A stretch of DNA of 64,000 nt from the IMG/VR virus record IMGVR_UViG_3300037847_007805, positions 15,410 to 79,409 of that record; one strand, written 5' to 3'. A program made the position numbers and the translations under genes. The stretch comes from a virus. This document shows positions 12,892 to 41,549 of this stretch, piece by piece (position 1 is the first letter of the stretch; each line of letters opens with the position of its first letter). The notes beneath the pieces were generated by a model that searched no databases, was not told where the DNA came from, and worked only from the letters and a program-made list of their open reading frames with translations.

Positions 12892-13843
12892 TGACGAAGC
12901 AGAAGAAGTAGAGTTTGAAGAAGTCGGCTCTTTTGATGCTAACCCTGATTTTTCTCCTTTTGACGAACCTGTTAAAGAAAGAGATTATACTAAGCCAAAC
13001 ATAGATGCTTCACAAATTGAAGGTGAATTAGAAGAACCTACATTTGAAGCACCAAGTTTTTCTGATTTTGAAGAAGAAGAAGAACCCAAACCATTTAATC
13101 CAAGTTACAATGAATTAGGTAATAAGGAAAAACAAATGGGTGCGGAAATGATTGCAGACGTTGTAGTAGACGGATATGCTCGTTTGAAAAAAGGTATGGG
13201 TAGCCTTTCCACTATTTCAGAAAATAAATTAGAAAGAGAATTTGCTGAAGGAAATATCAACCCTAATTTACAATTACCTATAGATGAATATGGAAATACT
13301 GCATCTATTAGAGAATTTGTAAAAGAGTTTAATGAAACAAGTAAAGAAGCGTTTGATACTCCTCAAGATTTTAAAGAAAAAGTAAAGCCACCTCTTATTA
13401 GAGTATTCAAAAAAAGAGGTGTAGGAATGACTGATGAACAGTTATTACTTTACTATTTTGGAACTGACTTTGCTACAGCAGGTATTACCGCATTTGGTCT
13501 TAAAAAATCAGCAGATGGGATTTTGAAACAATTAAGAGAACAAACTGATTTAATGCGTTCTCCCGCAAGTCCACCACCCCCACCTTCTAATCAATCATCA
13601 ACAGATGTTTCGGAAAGTGAAAGTGAGTTTGAAGAACCTGAAGAAGTTTTTGAGGTACAGCCCGATATAGTAGCACCAAAGAAACAGTCGAACTCAAACT
13701 TTAGTTCAGAGCAAGAAGTTCCTGAAAATATGCCTTCTTTTGGCGACCCTGCTATTTTGAAGGAGATTGATAAGATTGCTTCACAAGAGAACTTAGATTC
13801 AAAACCCAAACGAAAAAGGGGTAGACCTAAAAAGAAAAAATAG
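12869..13843 (+). CDS. Acidic protein upstream of the packaging ATPase, with a C-terminal AT-hook-like motif
   Basis: Acidic termini, hydrophobic LLLYYFGTDFATAGITAFGL, terminal KRKRGRPKKKK. Confidence 0.6.
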   Translation: MSTSKKTNDEAEEVEFEEVGSFDANPDFSPFDEPVKERDYTKPNIDASQIEGELEEPTFEAPSFSDFEEEEEPKPFNPSYNELGNKEKQMGAEMIADVVVDGYARLKKGMGSLSTISENKLEREFAEGNINPNLQLPIDEYGNTASIREFVKEFNETSKEAFDTPQDFKEKVKPPLIRVFKKRGVGMTDEQLLLYYFGTDFATAGITAFGLKKSADGILKQLREQTDLMRSPASPPPPPSNQSSTDVSESESEFEEPEEVFEVQPDIVAPKKQSNSNFSSEQEVPENMPSFGDPAILKEIDKIASQENLDSKPKRKRGRPKKKK

Positions 13844-13997
13844 GCATTATGTTTACCAAGGAAACAAATACATTAACTAACCTGTTTTTACGGGGAATTA
13901 GTTTAACAACTCCGTGTGTTACTTATACATACATAACTTTAGATAATCAAACATTTGTTTGTATAGATGAAAAATACACGATAAAATATCATACAAT

Positions 13998-14810
13998 ATG
14001 AGAGAGCCAAAATTAGGAGTAGCTGTAGGGAAAAAAGGTGTAGGGAAAACTTACACTACTGATAAGGTAATACAAAGCTATGTTCAAGGTAACCCGAGCA
14101 AAGGTGTAAAACCAAGACGAGCATTAATACTTGATGTAAATGATGAATTTGAACATATAAAAGCCTTACGAGTAAAAGACGTTATGAAGTTTTCTGTCCA
14201 CCCTACCGTAGAAGCAAGAAGAATACGACCATTTATGGAAGATGGTCAAAAAATGACCATAAGAGAAATTCAAGAAACTTTATTTGAAATCTTAAGACAC
14301 TATAGAGGCGGTTTACTTTTGATAGAGGATATAAACAGATATATTTCAGACCAACTACCAAATGACGTTGTGGGTGCTATATGTACAAACAGACACTCTG
14401 ACACAGATATAATTCTTCATTTTCAATCTATTGGAAGGGTAACTACAAAAATTTGGCAGAACCTAAATTGGTTAAGATTTCATAAAAACACCGATTCTGT
14501 AGATAGACACAAACACAAATTTGAAGATAAATTTGAATATCTTAAAATAGCAGAAATTTTAGTAAACCATAAATACTATAATGGCGATGAAAGATATTTT
14601 TTATATGTAGATGTTGATAGTGAGAAGATATTAGGAAACGTATCAAAAAAAGATTTAGATTTTGCTATCGAGGAATACATTTCTAAGTATTATAAAAAAA
14701 TTGTTACTCCACTTTTAAATCAAGTTGGCATGGACGGAAAAAAGAAATATACACCCGAATCAGCCATCAAAGAGATTAAATCCAAGATTTACAAGAATTT
14801 TAGTAAATAA
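13998..14810 (+). CDS. A32/FtsK-HerA-type genome packaging ATPase
   Basis: Walker A GKKGVGKT, Walker B LLLIED, Arg finger NRH and sensor ILHFQS; 270 aa with no nuclease domain. Confidence 0.8.
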   Translation: MREPKLGVAVGKKGVGKTYTTDKVIQSYVQGNPSKGVKPRRALILDVNDEFEHIKALRVKDVMKFSVHPTVEARRIRPFMEDGQKMTIREIQETLFEILRHYRGGLLLIEDINRYISDQLPNDVVGAICTNRHSDTDIILHFQSIGRVTTKIWQNLNWLRFHKNTDSVDRHKHKFEDKFEYLKIAEILVNHKYYNGDERYFLYVDVDSEKILGNVSKKDLDFAIEEYISKYYKKIVTPLLNQVGMDGKKKYTPESAIKEIKSKIYKNFSK

Positions 14811-14876
14811 ATGCAATTATCCTTTTTATTTGCAGATAATTTTATTTATTAAAATAAAAATTATTATAAAAGACAA

Positions 14877-14884
14877 TATATTTG
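14877..14884 (+). promoter_or_regulatory. Bacteroidota-type -7 promoter element upstream of the capsid operon
   Basis: Intergenic TATATTTG. Confidence 0.6.
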
Positions 14885-14947
14885 AAGCGTAGATAGTTCT
14901 GTAACTGTTTACGCTAATTTATTTATTAACTTTTATATCATTCTGTA

Positions 14948-15076
14948 ATGAATACCAAAGTGCTTATGGAGTTTGGTAAGTCCGTTTTAACTGTCGTTGT
15001 AGGAGTAGCTGTATATAATGCAGTAAAACCTATGCTCGATAAGGCAAAATTGTCTGCACCAAGTTCTGACGAATAG
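14948..15076 (+). CDS. 42-aa membrane protein immediately upstream of the capsid candidate (not in ORF track)
   Basis: MNTKVLMEFGKSVLTVVVGVAVYNAVKPMLDKAKLSAPSSDE. Confidence 0.65.
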   Translation: MNTKVLMEFGKSVLTVVVGVAVYNAVKPMLDKAKLSAPSSDE

Positions 15077-15127
15077 TCAAACGAAATTTTAAAAATTATT
15101 TATTAACCTTATTTTAAATTATTTATC

Positions 15128-15820
15128 ATGTCAAATGTACGCAGATATTTAGCAAATGCACAGAGAATGGCAAACGAATCTTTCTCTAATGCAGATGGTT
15201 TCATTGATGATGATTTGTCTTTCACAGGCGAAGATTTTTTCAGTGCTAATGGAGTAGGCGGTGGTTCAGCACCAACTTCTCAACCATATATTGTTACTGT
15301 AACTTCTACATCAGGAAGTGCTGTATCAAACTTTAAGGTGCTTGGTTCTTACGAGTATCTTAACAATTCAGGTTTCACCGCAGGTGGCGACCTTGTAATT
15401 GGTTCAATCACTATTTCAAGTGGAATTTCAGGTATCACATACCGTGAAATGTTGTACCAATTTATGAACAATCCGTATAGTGTAGGACTTACTTATGTAC
15501 AGTCAGCTACAGCTAATCAGATTTTGGAAACTATTTCTGTTAATACAAGAGATGCTAACGGTAATGAAGCACAAAAAACACTTGTGCCAACAATCGACCC
15601 GTATCAGCAACAATCTACAGTATTAGCTATGAAATATGCTTACCGAATTGATGGTTTCACAAAACTAATCATTCGTCAGATTTTAGCTAACGCTACTGTT
15701 AAATTGTACTTCTACCCATCTGACAACATTAACCTTGCAAGAGGTCTTGCAGGACAAAATGTTTCTCGTCAGTACGGAAACCCAGGCATTGTAAAAGCAC
15801 AAACTATCAAATTAACATAA
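15128..15820 (+). CDS. Candidate major capsid protein, probably single jelly-roll
   Basis: Beta-rich and soluble; follows the packaging ATPase; flanked by a promoter element and a strong terminator; frequent TTC/AAC/CGT codons suggest high expression. Confidence 0.6.
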   Translation: MSNVRRYLANAQRMANESFSNADGFIDDDLSFTGEDFFSANGVGGGSAPTSQPYIVTVTSTSGSAVSNFKVLGSYEYLNNSGFTAGGDLVIGSITISSGISGITYREMLYQFMNNPYSVGLTYVQSATANQILETISVNTRDANGNEAQKTLVPTIDPYQQQSTVLAMKYAYRIDGFTKLIIRQILANATVKLYFYPSDNINLARGLAGQNVSRQYGNPGIVKAQTIKLT

Positions 15821-15860
15821 TTAGATAGTTAATGCTTAACAATAGTATTGGATAATTAAC

Positions 15861-15896
15861 AAGGGGCGGATTGATTTATTCAACTTGCCCCTTTTT
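15861..15896 (+). terminator. Intrinsic terminator after the capsid candidate
   Basis: AAGGGGC...GCCCCTT stem running into a T tract. Confidence 0.8.
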
Positions 15897-15910
15897 AAAA
15901 TTTAAAAACT

Positions 15911-16276
15911 ATGGACGTATATAATTATGTAGCAGGTGCATCACCAATTAAAGCACAGGGTATTATAAACAGCTTTGGATATAAAGTCGTAGATAAAAAC
16001 GATATGGGTGGAAACCTTAAGTCGCTTGTGGCAAAAGAGGGAGAACCCGCACTTAAAATGATATTAGAATCACACCCTGATAAAGATGTGATTTTAGAAC
16101 TTTACGGAACTTCTGAAGGGGAGTGTAAAACCTGTAGAGATTCACAAATTATAGAAAAATTTTTAAACGCAAGTGGTAAAGAGCAAAGCGAGGCTAAAAA
16201 AAGTGATAATAACTTTTCATTAGTTTTCCTTGCAGGTATTTTGGCATTATCATTTGCAATCATTTCAAAAAAATAA
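15911..16276 (+). CDS. Virion membrane protein with C-terminal anchor and FLNASG motif
   Basis: Helical N-domain; FSLVFLAGILALSFAIISKK. Confidence 0.65.
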   Translation: MDVYNYVAGASPIKAQGIINSFGYKVVDKNDMGGNLKSLVAKEGEPALKMILESHPDKDVILELYGTSEGECKTCRDSQIIEKFLNASGKEQSEAKKSDNNFSLVFLAGILALSFAIISKK

Positions 16277-16279
16277 AAA

Positions 16280-16951
16280 ATGGCTCGATTTAACAAATTA
16301 GGACAAGCTATTGGTATTGCCATTTCAAAAGATGAGCAGGGAATAAGAAATTTGCTTCAAAGAAACGGTGTATCAACAGCTAACATAAAAACTAAAAACC
16401 AACTTGCAGATGTTTTTGTAGAATCACTTGTCGCATCTAAAGGTTTGGCTCAAGATTTTTCAAACTATGTAAAATCTAAAGATAATGTAAACTTCATGTA
16501 TAATAATGCAGGTGGAATGTATAACAACATGACATTAGAAATGTCATCTTTTGCAAGTGTTGTTGGTGATGGAGTGCCTGATGCTTATAATATGACGGGA
16601 GATGAATCAAATACTAACATTTGGTCGCCTTCAGGAACAAGCACTTCAGTAAATGCTGATGGCGAAAATGAAGAAGAAAAGAAAAAAGGTGGATTTTTTG
16701 AAGGAATAACCTTAAAAGAAATACTTAATCAAGCTAAAGATATTTACTTAGCTGATAAAAATGATTCAATCGCAAGACAAGAAACAGAACAAATAAAGAC
16801 AATAGCTAACACGCAAATCAATAACGATAATTTTTCACCTAACAGAACTTCTCCTGAAAAAAAATCAAACACAGGACTATATATTTTCCTTGGTGTTTTA
16901 GGATTAGCAGTCGTTGGTGGGGTTATTTATTTCGTATCAAAAAAGAAATAA
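16280..16951 (+). CDS. Virion membrane protein with C-terminal anchor and YNNAGG motif
   Basis: DEQGIRNLLQRNG domain shared with neighbours; LGVLGLAVVGGVIYFVSKKK. Confidence 0.7.
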   Translation: MARFNKLGQAIGIAISKDEQGIRNLLQRNGVSTANIKTKNQLADVFVESLVASKGLAQDFSNYVKSKDNVNFMYNNAGGMYNNMTLEMSSFASVVGDGVPDAYNMTGDESNTNIWSPSGTSTSVNADGENEEEKKKGGFFEGITLKEILNQAKDIYLADKNDSIARQETEQIKTIANTQINNDNFSPNRTSPEKKSNTGLYIFLGVLGLAVVGGVIYFVSKKK

Positions 16952-16952
16952 T

Positions 16953-17552
16953 ATGGCAACACAAGACCAATTACGTCAATTAGGAAATGCTGTAGGATTT
17001 TTGTCAGTAGCTGATATTCAAGGGCTTTCTAACCTTTTAGCTAAATATGGCAATATGCCTGATAACATTTCTTATCAAAGTTTGAATAAAGCAACAATAG
17101 AATCTTTATCAAACCGAAATTTTTACCAAGAATTTTTAAGATTAGTTTCTGCTAATGTAAAAGAGGTTGCTCAAATTAACCAATTCAGCAATGTAGCAGG
17201 TGATACGGTTGCAACTACCCCTGCAACCACTCCCGCTTCAACGGGTTCAGGCTTTTTTTCAGGGTTTAACTTAAACACTCTAATCGGTCTTGGAACTACT
17301 ATTTACGCAACTGAATCAGCAGGAAAACAACAAGACAGGCTGTTAAATGCTCAAGCTAATCAACAAGCACAGCAAAACCAAGATACGATTATGGCAGGTC
17401 AATTAGCTTTAGAAACCGAAAAATTAAAACTTGCTCAAATTCAGGCGGGTGGTGGACAAGGCGGTGCTAACAACACTATGCTATATGTAGGATTAGGTAT
17501 ATTAGGATTACTTGTAGTTGGTGGAGTTATTTACGCAGTAGCTAAAAAATAA
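16953..17552 (+). CDS. Paralog of 16280 protein with FSNVAG motif
   Basis: LGNAVG...DIQGLSNLLAKYG; GILGLLVVGGVIYAVAKK; start moved to ATG 16953. Confidence 0.7.
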   Translation: MATQDQLRQLGNAVGFLSVADIQGLSNLLAKYGNMPDNISYQSLNKATIESLSNRNFYQEFLRLVSANVKEVAQINQFSNVAGDTVATTPATTPASTGSGFFSGFNLNTLIGLGTTIYATESAGKQQDRLLNAQANQQAQQNQDTIMAGQLALETEKLKLAQIQAGGGQGGANNTMLYVGLGILGLLVVGGVIYAVAKK

Positions 17553-17555
17553 TAT

Positions 17556-17783
17556 ATGAAAAGTCCAAAAGAGATAGTTGAAGATGTTTCTTCAATGACC
17601 GATGAAAAGAAAAGAAAAGCATTTATGGTAAAAGCACAGTCAAGTGTGCATGGTGCTTTTTGGGGTGGTGCTTTTGGTCTTATGTTCGCTTTTTATAAAG
17701 GCAAAAATAAATATACAAGTGCCTTATTAGGTGCGGGTATTGGTGCGTTAGTGTCGAACCTTTTAACCGTTGAAAAAAAATAA
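17556..17783 (+). CDS. Glycine-zipper two-TM membrane protein
   Basis: GAFWGGAFG and LLGAGIGALV. Confidence 0.65.
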   Translation: MKSPKEIVEDVSSMTDEKKRKAFMVKAQSSVHGAFWGGAFGLMFAFYKGKNKYTSALLGAGIGALVSNLLTVEKK

Positions 17784-17787
17784 AATT

Positions 17788-18060
17788 ATGATAAATCCCG
17801 AAAGAAAGTATACGTTTGGCGACCCCAAGAATAAAAGTCAATTTTTTATAGATAATAATGTGACAATTTTACCTGTTAGGGGTGATAGAATGACAAAAGA
17901 GGAACAAAAAGCTAAAATAGAAGAAGAAAAAATAAAATTACAGGCAAGTCAAGATGAAAAGAAAATAAAGGAAAAAATCAAAAGAAATAAAAATGTTCTT
18001 ATATATGTGGCTGTAGCAGTAGCAGGTTTCTTTGCTTATAAAAAATTATTTAAAAAATAA
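17788..18060 (+). CDS. Small protein with C-terminal anchor
   Basis: VLIYVAVAVAGFFAYKKLFKK. Confidence 0.65.
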   Translation: MINPERKYTFGDPKNKSQFFIDNNVTILPVRGDRMTKEEQKAKIEEEKIKLQASQDEKKIKEKIKRNKNVLIYVAVAVAGFFAYKKLFKK

Positions 18061-18403
18061 AGTTATGAGAAAAATGAGTAAGGAAGCACAATTAGAACGC
18101 TTAAGAAAAAAATTAGCAGAATTTGAGGCTATCATGCAAAAAGGCGGTAAAGTTCAAGGTACTGTTGATAGTTTAAGAAAACAAATTGCTGTTTTAGAAC
18201 AAGCAACTTCAAAAAGCGACAAAAACATTGACTTAAGCAATTTAAAACCTGTCGGTGGTTCTGACACAGAAAAAGAAGTTTTTGAAATGCAAAGACAAGA
18301 ATTTGAAAAGGAAAAAAAGAAAGAAAAAAATAAAAAAATTCTTTTATACGTTGCCCTTGCAGTAGCAGGTTTCTTTGCTTATAAAAAATTATTTAAAAAA
18401 TAA
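18016..18403 (+). repeat. Identical 45-bp direct repeat (18016-18060 and 18359-18403) encoding the membrane-anchor end of two genes
   Basis: gcagtagcaggtttctttgcttataaaaaattatttaaaaaataa occurs twice. Confidence 0.9.
18065..18403 (+). CDS. Coiled-coil protein with C-terminal anchor
   Basis: ILLYVALAVAGFFAYKKLFKK. Confidence 0.65.
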   Translation: MRKMSKEAQLERLRKKLAEFEAIMQKGGKVQGTVDSLRKQIAVLEQATSKSDKNIDLSNLKPVGGSDTEKEVFEMQRQEFEKEKKKEKNKKILLYVALAVAGFFAYKKLFKK

Positions 18404-18829
18404 ATGATGCATCATTCAGATTACATGGAAGATTTTAACAATGCTATGGGTGGAAATTATAATTTCGGACTACATGGTTTTAAGCCTTCAAAAGGTAGTT
18501 TACTAAATACTTCTGTATTGGATAAAAAATTACGAGGAATTAGTGATAGTAGTGAATTGAAATCTGATGTCCAACCATCTGAAGAAGAATTACAAATGCA
18601 AGAAAAATATATGCAAGAGTTGATAGATGCAAATAAAAAATATCGTGCTACTTTAATTGGTGGTAGGATAGGAAGTTCTTTGGGCTTCATTGTAGCTTTA
18701 GGCTACGCTTTTAAAGTAAAGTCAGGATTTTGGAAAGGTTGGGGTTATACAATCTTGGGAAGCATGGCTTTAGGTGGATTAGGGGCAGGAGTAGGTTTTG
18801 CTATTGATTCATCAAAGAAGAATAATTAA
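18404..18829 (+). CDS. Two-TM glycine-rich membrane protein with FNNAMG motif
   Basis: GGRIGSSLG...KSGFWKGWGY...GGLGAGVG. Confidence 0.65.
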   Translation: MMHHSDYMEDFNNAMGGNYNFGLHGFKPSKGSLLNTSVLDKKLRGISDSSELKSDVQPSEEELQMQEKYMQELIDANKKYRATLIGGRIGSSLGFIVALGYAFKVKSGFWKGWGYTILGSMALGGLGAGVGFAIDSSKKNN

Positions 18830-18857
18830 TATATGTTAAACTTTAAATTTTAAAACT

Positions 18858-18977
18858 ATGAAATTAGATGTTAAATCTTTAGTAGGAGTAGCAGTATCAG
18901 TTGCTGTACTTTATGTAACCGTATATTACGGTGGACAAGCGTGGAAGCGTTCTCAAGAAGGTGAGAAACTATTATAA
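18858..18977 (+). CDS. 39-aa membrane protein (not in ORF track)
   Basis: MKLDVKSLVGVAVSVAVLYVTVYYGGQAWKRSQEGEKLL. Confidence 0.6.
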   Translation: MKLDVKSLVGVAVSVAVLYVTVYYGGQAWKRSQEGEKLL

Positions 18978-18980
18978 TAA

Positions 18981-19082
18981 ATGAAACAAAGAACTTTAAT
19001 AGGATTTTTTTTAGTTGTTGCAGGGATTGGGGGTCTATCTTATGTTTACAATCGTTACATAAAGGACGATTCTCAATCGTAG
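18981..19082 (+). CDS. 33-aa membrane protein (not in ORF track)
   Basis: MKQRTLIGFFLVVAGIGGLSYVYNRYIKDDSQS. Confidence 0.55.
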   Translation: MKQRTLIGFFLVVAGIGGLSYVYNRYIKDDSQS

Positions 19083-19097
19083 CAATGTTATTATAAT

Positions 19098-19361
19098 ATG
19101 GAAAAGTCAGCAAATCAATTATGGAGAGAAAGCGGTACTTCATTATCTTTTAAAGATTGGATTCAAAGAGAGAAAGATAAAGGTGTACAAATAAAAAACA
19201 AACTCCTTGAAAATGTTGTCGATTCGTTTAAAGAAACTGACGAACAAGACACAATAGATACAACAAGGTTTGCCTTTGGAATACCAAAATGGGTAGTTTA
19301 TACAGGTGTTTCAATTTTAACCTTTGCTGTTGTATATAAACTTTACAAAGCCAAAAAATGA
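19098..19361 (+). CDS. Small protein with C-terminal anchor
   Basis: GIPKWVVYTGVSILTFAVVYKLYKAKK. Confidence 0.65.
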   Translation: MEKSANQLWRESGTSLSFKDWIQREKDKGVQIKNKLLENVVDSFKETDEQDTIDTTRFAFGIPKWVVYTGVSILTFAVVYKLYKAKK

Positions 19362-20146
19362 ATTTAAGGATTAATACCCGATATGAAGAACTATCCTTGG
19401 CTATATATGTACAAACACTTGCACCCTGCAAAATCAGGATAAAAGTTTTTGATGCAGAACAGCCTAAAACTGTTTTTACCGACAGGTATAAAACCGTAAA
19501 AGGAAAAGAGGTTTTTTATGTCAGAATGCCCTTAACTTCAAGCAAGGTAATTGTAAGCATATACAACGAAGCTGTTGGAAATAAAAGGAAAGGCGAAGAT
19601 AGTAGCTTTATTGTTACAGAGGTCAAAAAACTTCCGTTGCAAAAAAGAACAGATGTTGGCGATATAAAAGATTATACCGTTTCAGCTTTTGTAGATTTTG
19701 CACAAAGGTTTTCATTTAATGCCTCGTATTTAGACGACAATAAAACTTATCAGAGCCAAAGCGGAGAGTTTTTGATAGAGTATTTACCAAATATAGTTAG
19801 TTCAAAAACAGGGAAAAAAATGAAAACCCCTGCTCGAATTTCCAAAGTAAATGGTAGAATACAAGTATCAAAAGAAGCGTTTGACACATATACTGTACCT
19901 ATGCGTATGGCTATATTGTTACACGAATTTTCCCACTTTTATTTAAATGATAATATGGACGATGAGGTTGAAGCTGACCTTAATGGTCTTTTAATCTATT
20001 TAGGCTTGGGCTATCCAAGGATAGAAGGTTATCAGGCTTTTTTAGAGGTGTTTCAAGAAAGTCCATCACAACAGAACAGAAACCGTTATGATATTATAAA
20101 TAAATTCATAAGGGATTTTGAGAATAATAAAATGGTAATGAATTAA
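19358..20146 (+). CDS. Zincin metalloprotease (HExxH); candidate maturation protease
   Basis: ILLHEFSHF followed by DEVEAD third-ligand motif; located in the structural block. Confidence 0.7.
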   Translation: MNLRINTRYEELSLAIYVQTLAPCKIRIKVFDAEQPKTVFTDRYKTVKGKEVFYVRMPLTSSKVIVSIYNEAVGNKRKGEDSSFIVTEVKKLPLQKRTDVGDIKDYTVSAFVDFAQRFSFNASYLDDNKTYQSQSGEFLIEYLPNIVSSKTGKKMKTPARISKVNGRIQVSKEAFDTYTVPMRMAILLHEFSHFYLNDNMDDEVEADLNGLLIYLGLGYPRIEGYQAFLEVFQESPSQQNRNRYDIINKFIRDFENNKMVMN

Positions 20147-38595: not shown

Positions 38596-38802
38596 ATGAG
38601 CCAAAGAGTAGGAGATTTTGGAAGTGAACTTATGAGTTGTGGAAACGATAGTGAAATTAAAAAATATGGTTCAGAACAAGCGTGTAGGGAAGCAAAACTA
38701 TTTCCAAATAAAAAGAAATCTGAAAAGGTAAGTAAACAATATCTTATGTATGGTCTTATAGCAGTAGCGGGATATTTCGCATACAAAAAATTTAAAAAAT
38801 AA
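38596..38802 (+). CDS. Small protein with C-terminal anchor
   Basis: IAVAGYFAYKKFKK, same anchor type as 17788 and 18065. Confidence 0.65.
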   Translation: MSQRVGDFGSELMSCGNDSEIKKYGSEQACREAKLFPNKKKSEKVSKQYLMYGLIAVAGYFAYKKFKK

Positions 38803-39146
38803 TGGACGGGCAAACTAAAAAACTTTTAATAGTAGTTGGAATAGCTGTATTAGTTCTATGGGTTACGAAACCAAAAAACAATATGGTAGATTCAATGAGA
38901 AAAGGTGGTTCTAAAAAATTAGATGCACCTAAAACTTTAGATTCAAAACTTGCTCAAGAACAGCATGAAGGTACAGTTGGTATTCAAGCGATGCGAAGTG
39001 CAATAGCAAATGGAGAAACGAAAAAAGAACTTGACAAACTAAATAGAATGCTTTTGAATGAAAATGGCATCAAAGTTTATGTAATGTCAAATGGTAAATT
39101 GTGTGCGAGAAACAGAAAGGGTAAAACAGTTGCAAAAGAAAAATAA
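38802..39146 (+). CDS. Membrane protein with N-terminal anchor
   Basis: KKLLIVVGIAVLVLWVTKPK. Confidence 0.65.
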   Translation: MDGQTKKLLIVVGIAVLVLWVTKPKNNMVDSMRKGGSKKLDAPKTLDSKLAQEQHEGTVGIQAMRSAIANGETKKELDKLNRMLLNENGIKVYVMSNGKLCARNRKGKTVAKEK

Positions 39147-39149
39147 TTT

Positions 39150-39692
39150 ATGGGAGTATATTCACCATCAACAACATCTTTTCCTAACGGGGTGGTTACT
39201 ATAGAAAGTGAAGATGACACTTTGTATAGCACCATTCAAGAAGCTGTTGCAGGTTCTCATAACTACCAAATCAATGAAATTTACCTAAAAGCAAACGACA
39301 TATCCCAAATCCTACAGCCGATTACTTTTCAAAAGTATGATTCAAATGGAGATATTCTTGAGGATAAAAGAGTTCCCACAGTAGACCCATTTTCATTTCA
39401 ACCTTCTATAAAAATAAATTTTAAAAACAAGGATTATATTTTAGATGGTCGCTTAGAAATAGATTATACAGTCAAAGGTGGAGAAGAAGTTTATTTCTAT
39501 TTAGATACGACTGTGTTAGACAATGGTGCATTACTTGGCGATGATAAAAGTATGCCGAAAGATTTTTTGAAAACATATAATTTTTTCCAAGATTACGGAA
39601 AAGAAATAGAAATTGATTTTAGTTATGACGAAAGGGCAATACCTGAATGCACAGACCAAGAGGCGAGTGATTTCAGGACTGAAAACAGGTGA
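39150..39692 (+). CDS. Paralog of the candidate capsid protein (second or minor capsid protein)
   Basis: QILQPI...DSNG...VPTVDP...YILDG aligns with QILETI...DANG...VPTIDP...YRIDG of 15128. Confidence 0.65.
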   Translation: MGVYSPSTTSFPNGVVTIESEDDTLYSTIQEAVAGSHNYQINEIYLKANDISQILQPITFQKYDSNGDILEDKRVPTVDPFSFQPSIKINFKNKDYILDGRLEIDYTVKGGEEVYFYLDTTVLDNGALLGDDKSMPKDFLKTYNFFQDYGKEIEIDFSYDERAIPECTDQEASDFRTENR

Positions 39693-40077
39693 TTTAGTTA
39701 AACTTCGTTCAGAATACATTTTTTTGCCTTTTGTATTTCACTATGGAATCATAAGTTTAGAAGATGGTAAAATATATATTTACCACTCAATTACCGACAA
39801 AGAAAATAAACATGGTGGTAATTTAGTAAGAGAAGATTTTGAGCAAGTAATAAAAGGTAGAGAAATTTTAGCTGTAGAAAGTTTAGATATAAAAAAAGAA
39901 AATTTTTATAATACCTTAGATAAATTACAAAAAAGAAAATATGATGTGTTTACAAATAACTGTGAGCATTTTGTTAATTTTATAAAAGAAAAAAGATTTG
40001 TTTCAAATCAACTTAAAACTTGGGGTTTAGCAGTTTCCCTTGGGATAGTTGTATATTTATTTATTAAGAAAAAATGA
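39625..40077 (+). CDS. LRAT/H-rev107-like permuted NlpC/P60 enzyme with C-terminal anchor
   Basis: GDLV...FHYGI...IYH...YDVFTNNCEHFV. Confidence 0.8.
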   Translation: MTKGQYLNAQTKRRVISGLKTGDLVKLRSEYIFLPFVFHYGIISLEDGKIYIYHSITDKENKHGGNLVREDFEQVIKGREILAVESLDIKKENFYNTLDKLQKRKYDVFTNNCEHFVNFIKEKRFVSNQLKTWGLAVSLGIVVYLFIKKK

Positions 40078-41549
40078 GTTACAAAGAAGCCATAAGTTTA
40101 AAACTAACAAATAACACTTCTATTGACCAACCCATTGGAATACTTGGGGGGCAATCTTCTACATATCAAAACTCAAATAATAACATTTTAGTTGAGTGGG
40201 ATTTAGCAGGTGAAACTTTTTCTGCCACAACTGTTACTCTTGATACTACTGTGCCTGTTACGGTAGATTTGCCTTCTCAAAACATACAGGGAGTAGTAGA
40301 AGCGTTAAATACAACAGATAAAGCTATCTTTACTACTTCAGGAACAAAAGTTTATGCAACATCTTTAAGAGATAGTAGTGTTCAATCCGCAGATATAAGT
40401 GTTGGTACAAGTGGAACATATTTAGCAAAGGTTTTAGGAACAACTGCCGATAGTGTTAATTTTACTCAATTTTCTCCGTCATCTGTAATTAGTGCATTTG
40501 AAAGTGCCACAACAAATACAGGAACAACTTTATACATAGACCCAAGTGATACAATTACTGTAGGGACACAGCTTTATGATGATTCTTTTGGAAATACCGC
40601 ATCAACAGTAACGCAGTTTGCAACTCAAGGACTTGGCTCTAACCCAAATGTGCTTACTATTCATAATGGAATTATAACAGAAGTAACTCCCCGAGGTAAC
40701 TTAACTAATAATTTTTCGAGGGATATAACTGCGATGCCTAATTTTAATAAATCTACAGTTTTTACAGGAACTACGGGGCAGACGGGTAAATTCATAAAAC
40801 AATGGGTGCTTTCAACAAATGGTAAATATGTATTTGCCATTGAAGATAATGCTGTAATTTACAGATGGACATTTACAACCGCATGGGATTTTTCGACATT
40901 TGATAATACTTCAACTACCTCGCTTGACTTAACAGGTCTTGATGGTTCTGTAGGCACTCAAAAAGGATTGGCTATAAACCCCATTGGAAATAAATTATAT
41001 TTTTATGATAATGGTAATGGTGGCTATAGAAGTGTTAGTTTAAGCACTCCGTTTGATTTATCAACTGCTACGTTAGATAGTTTTACAGCTAACGTAAGTA
41101 CAGCAAGACAAATTTGTTGGAATAATGATGGCACATCTTTAGTGGGTATTGATAAAACTGCGGGTATTAATATAAGTGCTTATTCAACACCTTTTGATTT
41201 ATCTTCATATCAATCTAATCAGAATGAGCCGACTATGACAACCTACATAAACCCCTCAAAAAGTAATGCATCATGTGAGAGTTTAATTATTTCGCCTGAT
41301 GGGACTAAATGGTATGTACTGTTTTTCGCTGTTGGTACTCCGAATGAATTTGAAACCATACAGGTAGATATTAGTAGTTATAGCGATATAACAACACTAA
41401 ACCAAACAGACAACAATAGGCAATTCGATGGAATATCAGAGGTTACAAATGGCTTGTGGTGGAATGAAAATCAAACTGAATTATTTTTCCACCAATCAGC
41501 AAATGGTGGTGATAATGATATTTATAGAGTTGATTTCCCTGCACCTTAA
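40074..41549 (+). CDS. Putative spike or vertex protein with C-terminal beta-propeller
   Basis: Repeats WDFST, PFDLST, PFDLSS with NPIGNKLY and SPDGTKWY blades; Thr-rich N-terminal half. Confidence 0.55.
   Translation: MSYKEAISLKLTNNTSIDQPIGILGGQSSTYQNSNNNILVEWDLAGETFSATTVTLDTTVPVTVDLPSQNIQGVVEALNTTDKAIFTTSGTKVYATSLRDSSVQSADISVGTSGTYLAKVLGTTADSVNFTQFSPSSVISAFESATTNTGTTLYIDPSDTITVGTQLYDDSFGNTASTVTQFATQGLGSNPNVLTIHNGIITEVTPRGNLTNNFSRDITAMPNFNKSTVFTGTTGQTGKFIKQWVLSTNGKYVFAIEDNAVIYRWTFTTAWDFSTFDNTSTTSLDLTGLDGSVGTQKGLAINPIGNKLYFYDNGNGGYRSVSLSTPFDLSTATLDSFTANVSTARQICWNNDGTSLVGIDKTAGINISAYSTPFDLSSYQSNQNEPTMTTYINPSKSNASCESLIISPDGTKWYVLFFAVGTPNEFETIQVDISSYSDITTLNQTDNNRQFDGISEVTNGLWWNENQTELFFHQSANGGDNDIYRVDFPAP

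Follow-up and report, generated by a model that had tools for sequence, protein, structure and literature searches.

We report here that gene 39150, in a 64,000-nucleotide stretch of viral DNA (the window), encodes a distant paralog of the coat-protein candidate 15128, and that this paralog is coupled, through gene order and natural fusions, to the conserved N-terminal domain of the neighboring spike-like protein 40074. The window covers bases 15410-79409 of the 79,409-bp IMG/VR record IMGVR_UViG_3300037847_007805, from an uncultured water virus, and has a guanine-plus-cytosine (GC) content of ∼30%; its genes are named below by their first nucleotide in the window. The combined analysis suggested to us that 39150 and the anchor domain of 40074 may form a penton-plus-spike-anchor vertex module, a reading toward which we lean without great assurance. 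The features on which the argument turns are as follows.

15128-15820, plus strand: coat-protein candidate, 230 residues, with the shared core at residues ∼92-196 (nucleotides 15401-15715).
39150-39692, plus strand: paralog of the coat candidate, 180 residues, with a conserved arm (residues 1-13), a core (∼14-125), and a tail (126-180).
40074-40403, plus strand: anchor domain of 40074, residues 1-∼110, the part of the protein kept in relatives.
40404-41549, plus strand: variable distal part of 40074, with repeats, likely a propeller-type head.

A first-pass annotation of the window had aligned 39150 with 15128 by eye over about 100 residues, and the likeness is borne out far beyond chance. Pairwise BLASTP joins the two proteins at E = 7e-8 over 49 residues, which include the VPT[IV]DP and D[AS]NG motifs, and in the genome of the virus itself a six-frame search with 15128 as query returns only 15128 and 39150 (E = 8.4e-6, residues 114-197). 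From a word-based search we obtained 17 homologs of 39150, which were made into a family profile (A1). This profile matches the 15128 ortholog in all 25 related virus records (E about 1e-15) and the true 39150 ortholog in 16 of them (1e-35 to 1e-47), with a longer fused form in one. When the two family profiles are aligned with hhalign, residues 14-119 of 39150 fall on residues 92-196 of 15128 (probability 97%, E = 1.2e-10). A profile search of 1.84 billion cluster representatives brings the number of 39150 relatives to 494 at E ≤ 1e-3, and with a deeper family alignment of 139 sequences (A4) the comparison to the coat family reaches E = 1.3e-17 (probability 98.9%). The A4 profile matches 15128 in its own genome at E = 3.4e-21; neither the six-frame search with 15128 nor the search with the 39150 profile reveals a third 15128-like copy there. 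Reciprocally, the hidden Markov model of the coat family matches nearly all members of the 39150 family, and a FastTree phylogeny of 183 domain copies over 151 columns splits the coat-type copies from all 39150-type copies with a support of 0.998. Neither protein has a Pfam, PHROG, NCBIfam, or PDB sequence-profile match. We consider it nearly certain from these sequence comparisons that 39150 is a genuine distant paralog of 15128. It arose by an old duplication of the coat-type gene, after which a sandwich core of ∼105-150 residues was kept and ∼28-40 residues near the N-terminus were lost.

The two paralogs differ sharply in how fast they change. Homologs of 15128 number 1923 at E ≤ 0.01, and the best 120 are 80-100% identical. 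Between relatives, 39150 orthologs are 33-43% identical, whereas in the same viruses 15128 orthologs are 71-81% identical and those of the adjoining ATPase 56-73%; the anchor domains of 40074 are 30-42% identical. This bears on the proposal of the first-pass annotation that 39150 is a second capsid or vertex protein. The vertex half of that proposal is the best fit to the data. The capsid half, in which 39150 and 15128 would build mixed capsomers over the whole shell, fits poorly, given the 24 kb that separate 39150 from 15128 and the much higher rate at which 39150 changes, and we judge it distinctly improbable. It would account for the presence of two paralogous small beta-sandwich proteins in one virus, and in some relatives additional 15128-like copies do occur, among them a gene with two domains in tandem; but 39150 is without part of the 15128 domain and is fused to spike-type modules in many lineages. 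Sphaerolipovirus-type viruses (P23-77, SH1, HHIV-2) use two single-jelly-roll coat proteins. As in those viruses, the structural candidates here are paralogous and of jelly-roll size, and a small packaging-type ATPase adjoins; unlike in those viruses, the two genes are not adjacent and are unequally conserved, and 39150 is tied to a spike.

That tie is seen in every relative examined. Where the 39150- and 40074-type genes are separate, they adjoin in 11 of 11 relatives; a twelfth has what looks like a single fused gene. Ten IMG/VR relatives keep the order 37698-like, 38249-like, 38802-like, 39150-like, 40074-like, and then a convergent recombination block, with an LRAT-like gene present or absent between the 39150- and 40074-like genes; recT is found in the recombination block of nine of the ten. 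A 132-kb contig that was binned with a Sediminibacterium metagenome-assembled genome (MAG) shows the identical module order, recT included. Among 163 family members examined, nine cluster representatives combine a 39150-type domain with an anchor domain in a single chain.

39150-type domain followed by anchor domain (eight proteins): P0200, P0202, P0203, P0226, P0233, P0254, P0255, P0268.
Anchor domain followed by 39150-type domain (one protein): P0142.

A 290-residue gene product of the relative G022 resembles P0254 and appears by eye to be the same type of fusion. The fused forms are dispersed over the domain tree, and every one of them has an unfused nearest neighbor there, with supports of, for example, 1.0, 0.96, and 0.93, which suggests repeated fusion or fission, as read from a tree that is short and partly resolved and in which some unfused neighbors could be truncated open reading frames (ORFs). 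Coupling of 39150 to a spike or host-recognition protein is therefore seen as adjacency of genes, as fusion in both orders, and in the hypervariable end of the partner. From the observed synteny and fusions, 39150 and the anchor domain of 40074 are very probably partners that act as a unit, whether as neighboring genes or as one polypeptide, and physical contact between them would be expected.

The partner is a 491-residue protein in which only the first ∼100 residues are conserved, as judged from 10 aligned orthologs (alignment A2, 28-38% identity; BLASTP E = 7e-12 over residues 7-96). A homolog search with residues 1-110 returned near-identical proteins only, a limit set by the word index, and 40074 has no Pfam family at E ≤ 0.1 and no PHROGs or NCBIfam match. 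Beyond the anchor, residues ∼240-491 contain about five repeats of ∼52 residues that end in a T-P-F-D-L-S-S/T-like motif. Self-comparison gives offsets of 47-57, 103-114, and 153-162 residues, and its best ungapped score of 42, set against a shuffle mean of 30.5 (standard deviation 4.3, maximum 39), indicates a modest periodicity. The ESM Atlas offers a sub-threshold FG-GAP lead only, with a score of 0.75 (<0.9). The orthologs of 40074 in three relatives carry NHL/SBBP propeller repeats, with SBBP scores of 51-83 bits against a Pfam cutoff of 20.5; 40074 itself has no NHL or SBBP match above the Pfam gathering score. In other relatives the distal part takes 747-, 980-, and 1241-residue forms, with no Pfam match in the latter two, and in P0203 the anchor is followed by PKD and LRR modules. 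Five relatives have anchor-only proteins of 113-137 residues, with no distal head. The distal part of 40074 is likely a propeller-type host-recognition head.

The first-pass annotation had also noted that 39150 lacks the first strands of 15128 and had suggested that the N-terminus of 40074 weakly resembles these strands and might complete 39150 in trans. The first observation broadly holds at the level of sequence. The folded part of 15128 begins near residue 53, after an acidic glycine-rich leader, and residues ∼53-91 (∼40 residues) have no counterpart in 39150: the shared core begins at residue ∼92 in 15128 and at residue ∼14 in 39150, which has 13 residues ahead of it. A global profile alignment does place residues ∼4-12 of 39150 on the first 15128 strand, followed by a 28-residue deletion, with zero alignment confidence. 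By either measure, ∼28-40 residues are absent. The second suggestion fared differently. When residues 1-110 of 40074, as an 11-ortholog profile (A2), are compared with the 15128 family, hhalign gives E = 0.22 (probability 0.3%) with the match outside the proposed region; with extended profiles, in which 19 anchor domains (fused ones included) are set against the coat family enlarged by three divergent extra paralogs, the result is E = 0.065 (probability 0.9%), and the match once more falls outside that region. We therefore rejected the proposed resemblance. What had been seen by eye amounts to two strand-like segments ending in L-G, indistinguishable from chance. Nor does the 40074 segment resemble the 39150 family (E = 0.43, probability 0.1%).

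Donation of a strand by 40074 to an incomplete 39150 sandwich might still be entertained since residues of the 15128 domain are missing, the two proteins are obligate partners, and the anchor domain opens with a conserved strand-like I-x-L-x-V-x-N-N-T segment. Against these points stand the failure of the profile comparisons to find any likeness to the 15128 strands and the predicted structure of 39150, whose core is confident as a monomer, with a predicted local distance difference test (pLDDT) score of 87-95 over residues 10-130. In addition, the fusions carry linkers and occur in both domain orders, so two packed domains fit better than the insertion of one specific strand. We regard strand donation as very unlikely; it finds no support in the comparisons and is unneeded to explain the data.

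The model of 39150 that informs this judgment depends on the depth of the alignment. With 17 sequences, AlphaFold gave a pLDDT of 54; with 139 sequences, it gave a pLDDT of 81 and a predicted template modeling score of 0.61, and residues from 131 on stay at 57-67. The beta-sandwich core corresponds to nucleotides 39189-39524, and the tail (residues 126-180) is poorly conserved and of low confidence. As assigned by DSSP, the core has a helix at residues 26-34 and strands at 38-48, 58-63, 69-74, 86-90, 102-106, and 114-123; a seventh, short N-terminal strand (14-19) is seen only in the low-confidence first model. Foldseek finds nothing at E ≤ 0.001 in PDB or BFVD with this model, and its best PDB matches are F-type fucose-binding modules at E = 0.019. 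A wide search with VIA-align returned 893 chains at Z ≥ 2 and two at Z ≥ 5. In a second look, nucleoplasmin-type cores take all of the first eleven places (Z 5.1-5.6, root-mean-square deviation 2.9-3.8 Å, 73-90 residues aligned), followed at Z ∼4 by carbohydrate-binding modules (CBMs), F-lectins, and the capsid proteins of STMV, XSV, a geminivirus, phiCjT23, and FLiP (3.9-4.4 for STMV, XSV, FLiP, and phiCjT23). Scores in this range need care in reading, as Z values below 8 are common for unrelated sandwiches in the calibration of the method and may reflect a shared arrangement only. P31, PM2 P1, STIV A223, and the adenovirus penton base are not among the VIA-align matches listed, which does not exclude them. 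Nucleoplasmin cores are pentameric eight-stranded jelly-rolls. They align with the 39150 model over 73-90 of ∼95-108 residues; unlike it, they belong to a eukaryotic histone chaperone, and with 7-10% identity and a Z below the specific level the resemblance is one of shape only. The likeness of the 39150 core to a pentameric jelly-roll is suggestive only, and the modeled core is best described as a small sandwich of jelly-roll-like form, which would suit a capsid or penton domain without proving one.

The same structural matches bring in another way to place 39150. It could be a lectin- or CBM-like host-recognition adaptor outside the shell, forming with the anchor a receptor-binding complex on the membrane, on the giant fiber, or on another capsid protein. 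The F-type fucose-binding modules that head the Foldseek matches would fit such an adaptor, as would CBM32, CBM62, and the AlgX CBM, whose Z of 4.1-4.8 is close to the best. The fast evolution of 39150, its fusion to PKD/LRR or propeller heads, and the membrane proteins that flank it are also in keeping with this role. However, a position in the shell accounts more readily for the clear homology to 15128, the structural candidate that is both best conserved and most abundant; the anchor protein is headless in several relatives, and no sugar-binding motif was identified. We consider the adaptor unlikely, if still worth keeping in mind.

Any position in a shell presupposes that 15128 builds one, and 15128 is itself a coat-protein candidate. 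Its gene adjoins that of a 270-residue P-loop ATPase, which cannot be assigned by sequence to the FtsK/HerA-A32 packaging clade with Pfam and PDB profiles. Long runs of small single-pass membrane proteins surround both 15128 and 39150, and inverted terminal repeats are found in relatives of the virus. The deposited GenBank phage genomes have no DNA match to positions 13000-20000, and tblastn finds neither 15128 nor the ATPase in them. We also considered a cryptic tailed phage, in which 15128 and 39150 would be tail-type paralogs (tube-like and distal-tail-like) and 40074 a fiber docked on 39150. An abundant conserved protein with an adaptor paralog beside a fiber with a conserved N-terminus describes tail tube and Dit-type proteins as well, the 39150 model has weak fold matches to podovirus tail complexes (Z 3.9-4.8), and the ATPase weakly matches a PHROG family labeled terminase large subunit (E = 9e-7). 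On the other side, no tailed-phage hallmark (portal, HK97 capsid, terminase nuclease, tape measure, or tube family) was found with Pfam or PHROGs in 29 scanned ORFs, which include all large unassigned ORFs of the plus-strand block and those of the 15 kb upstream of the window. The ATPase is also just 270 residues long, the two paralogs lie amid the membrane-protein runs just described, and the 39150 model is a sandwich for which the expected tube-protein matches are missing. A tailed virion is thus highly improbable in our view.

We return to the vertex module. Four observations fit a module of the PRD1/PR772 kind, which is the most likely role of the unit: the homology of 39150 to the most conserved structural candidate, its obligate pairing with the base of 40074, the constant part of an otherwise hypervariable protein, its host-interaction-like evolutionary rate, and the single-pass membrane proteins that flank it. 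In such a module, the jelly-roll-like domain of 39150 would occupy the five-fold positions of a shell built by 15128, in an icosahedral membrane-containing particle. The anchor of 40074 would sit on or in 39150 and bear an exchangeable distal head for host recognition, and the single-pass protein encoded by 38802 may tether the vertex complex to the internal membrane.

Other points weigh against this placement. It is deduced from genes, sequence, and a monomer model, and the coat role of 15128 is deduced as well. The ATPase matches are at the P-loop level only: Pfam AAA_22 scores 21 bits, below its cutoff of 27, and PDB HerA gives E = 0.06. The fold matches of 39150 are weak (best Z 5.6, Foldseek E ≥ 0.019), and F-type lectins and CBMs score nearly as well as the best of them. 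It is unusual for a penton to change at about the rate of the spike, and the virus also encodes a 3772-residue fiber.

Comparison with described vertices shows a mixture of likeness and difference. The vertex complex of PR772 and PRD1 consists of the penton protein P31, the N-terminal domain of the spike protein P5, and the membrane protein P16, and in PR772, which has a 15-kb genome, the P5 N-terminal domain is homologous to P31 and both are in the penton (PMC6750898). The module described here shares with these phages a small single-pass membrane protein gene beside the vertex genes, and the virus further resembles them in its numerous small membrane proteins and, as seen in relatives, in inverted terminal repeats. 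Unlike P5 and P31, the anchor domain shows no homology to the penton candidate 39150 (hhalign E = 0.43), whose sequence is instead akin to that of the coat candidate. The genome is also about five times larger (79 kb), the coat candidate has the size of a single rather than a double jelly-roll, and the unit has been split or fused repeatedly, with an enzyme gene that may separate its halves. In vertex proteins of the PM2 P1 and STIV A223 type, a penton jelly-roll is followed by outer domains in one chain. The fused relatives, with a 39150 domain, an anchor, and a PKD/LRR or other head in 258-445 residues, have this one-chain layout; by contrast, the unit in this virus is encoded by two genes, sometimes with an enzyme gene between them, and there is no sequence match or significant fold match to P1 or A223.

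The surroundings of the module are as follows. Genes in the window lie on the plus strand up to position 41549 and on the minus strand beyond, and 38802, 39150, 39613, and 40074 make up the last part of the plus-strand block. The two genes of this group not yet described are given below.

38802-39146, plus strand: membrane protein, 114 residues, with one N-terminal membrane helix (hydrophobic residues ∼8-22, read from the translation).
39613-40077, plus strand: LRAT/PLAAT- and NlpC-P60-like thiol enzyme, 154 residues, with an NCEHF motif and a C-terminal membrane helix.

Gene 38802 ends 4 nucleotides ahead of 39150. Among the 12 relatives examined, its ortholog lies directly upstream of the 39150 ortholog in 11, with 33-44% identity, and was not detected in the fused-form record (G022, L079). 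The Pfam LRAT match of 39613 is just above threshold (E = 2.5e-5, 25.0 bits against a cutoff of 24.3), and its start, TTG at 39613 or ATG at 39625, overlaps the tail of 39150 by 68-80 nucleotides. An LRAT-like gene is found in only 8 of the 12 relatives, with none in G007, G017, G019, or G006, so we take it to be an optional cassette between 39150 and 40074. The target of this membrane-anchored enzyme may be the host envelope or lipid at entry. Beyond 40074, recT (NCBIfam RecT, E = 2.5e-38) runs in the opposite direction. The plus-strand stop codon of 40074 and the minus-strand stop codon of recT overlap at 41546-41549; the late structural and recombination blocks therefore converge with no intergenic space for a terminator.

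Relatives of the virus hold further copies of the 15128-type domain. In G021, a 102-kb relative, a 397-residue ORF (G021:C1:17225-18418, equal to L085:726-1919, plus strand) has two tandem full 15128-type domains behind a hydrophobic, lysine-rich N-terminus and is separate from the normal coat ortholog of G021 at ∼59.5 kb. G003 has an extra 217-residue 15128-like paralog (L084:4535-5188, minus strand) directly upstream of its ATPase gene, with a hydrophobic N-terminus of the type found in the G021 double-domain protein. The metagenomic protein P0278 (975 residues) has three 39150/15128-type domains at residues 42-190, 528-677, and 720-871, with no Pfam match.

A scan of genome contigs with the 39150 profile found nothing, and with the coat profile it found one MAG contig. 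JBBAJS010000009.1 (132,486 bp, Sediminibacterium sp. MAG; L092-L097) carries a coat ortholog of 77% identity and, 28 kb away, the whole 38802-39150-LRAT-anchor-recT module. Because long ORFs are few and the GC content is ∼31% at both of its ends, the contig may be viral throughout rather than a prophage. This contig gives a weak clue to a Bacteroidota host; another coat homolog (P0020) bears a Pelagibacter MAG label. In two records rated 100% complete, G013 (73,240 bp; L080) and G014 (76,746 bp; L081), the 39150 and anchor domains appear to be absent. The G013 contig ends inside a Cys-rich fiber gene, which lies upstream of the module, and real loss was rejected because the record ends before the module. 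In G014, the coat gene is ∼14 kb from the contig end, and to judge from this position alone the absence of the module likewise comes from the end of the record. Completeness estimates for this virus group appear to be unreliable. G013 also has a run of small proteins (L080:6126-7365), each with an N-terminal membrane helix and a peptidoglycan-binding-like repeat of the L-K-K-G-S-x-G-x-E-V type, which expands the membrane-protein block after the coat gene.

A bolder proposal is that the whole shell of these 70-130-kb viruses is made from one single-jelly-roll family, with 15128 in six-fold and 39150 in five-fold capsomers. The kinship of coat and penton, lost in all described jelly-roll lineages, would then still be visible in sequence, and tandem double-domain copies such as the 397-residue gene of the 102-kb relative would capture the step from single to double jelly-roll. 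We think this rather unlikely to be correct as a whole.

These findings describe a candidate vertex module that consists of a coat-paralog penton candidate, a new anchor domain of ∼100 residues, and an exchangeable head. Should these viruses prove to be of a large, tailless, membrane-containing type, knowledge of the vertex genes would be needed to understand how the particle is constructed, and the group is very abundant. The natural fusions provide ready material for structural work, and the host-range cassette of these viruses can be recognized by its anchor domain, an aid in interpreting metagenomes. Were the coat and penton candidates to be confirmed, a kinship that can still be detected in their sequences would inform the question of how jelly-roll capsids have diversified.

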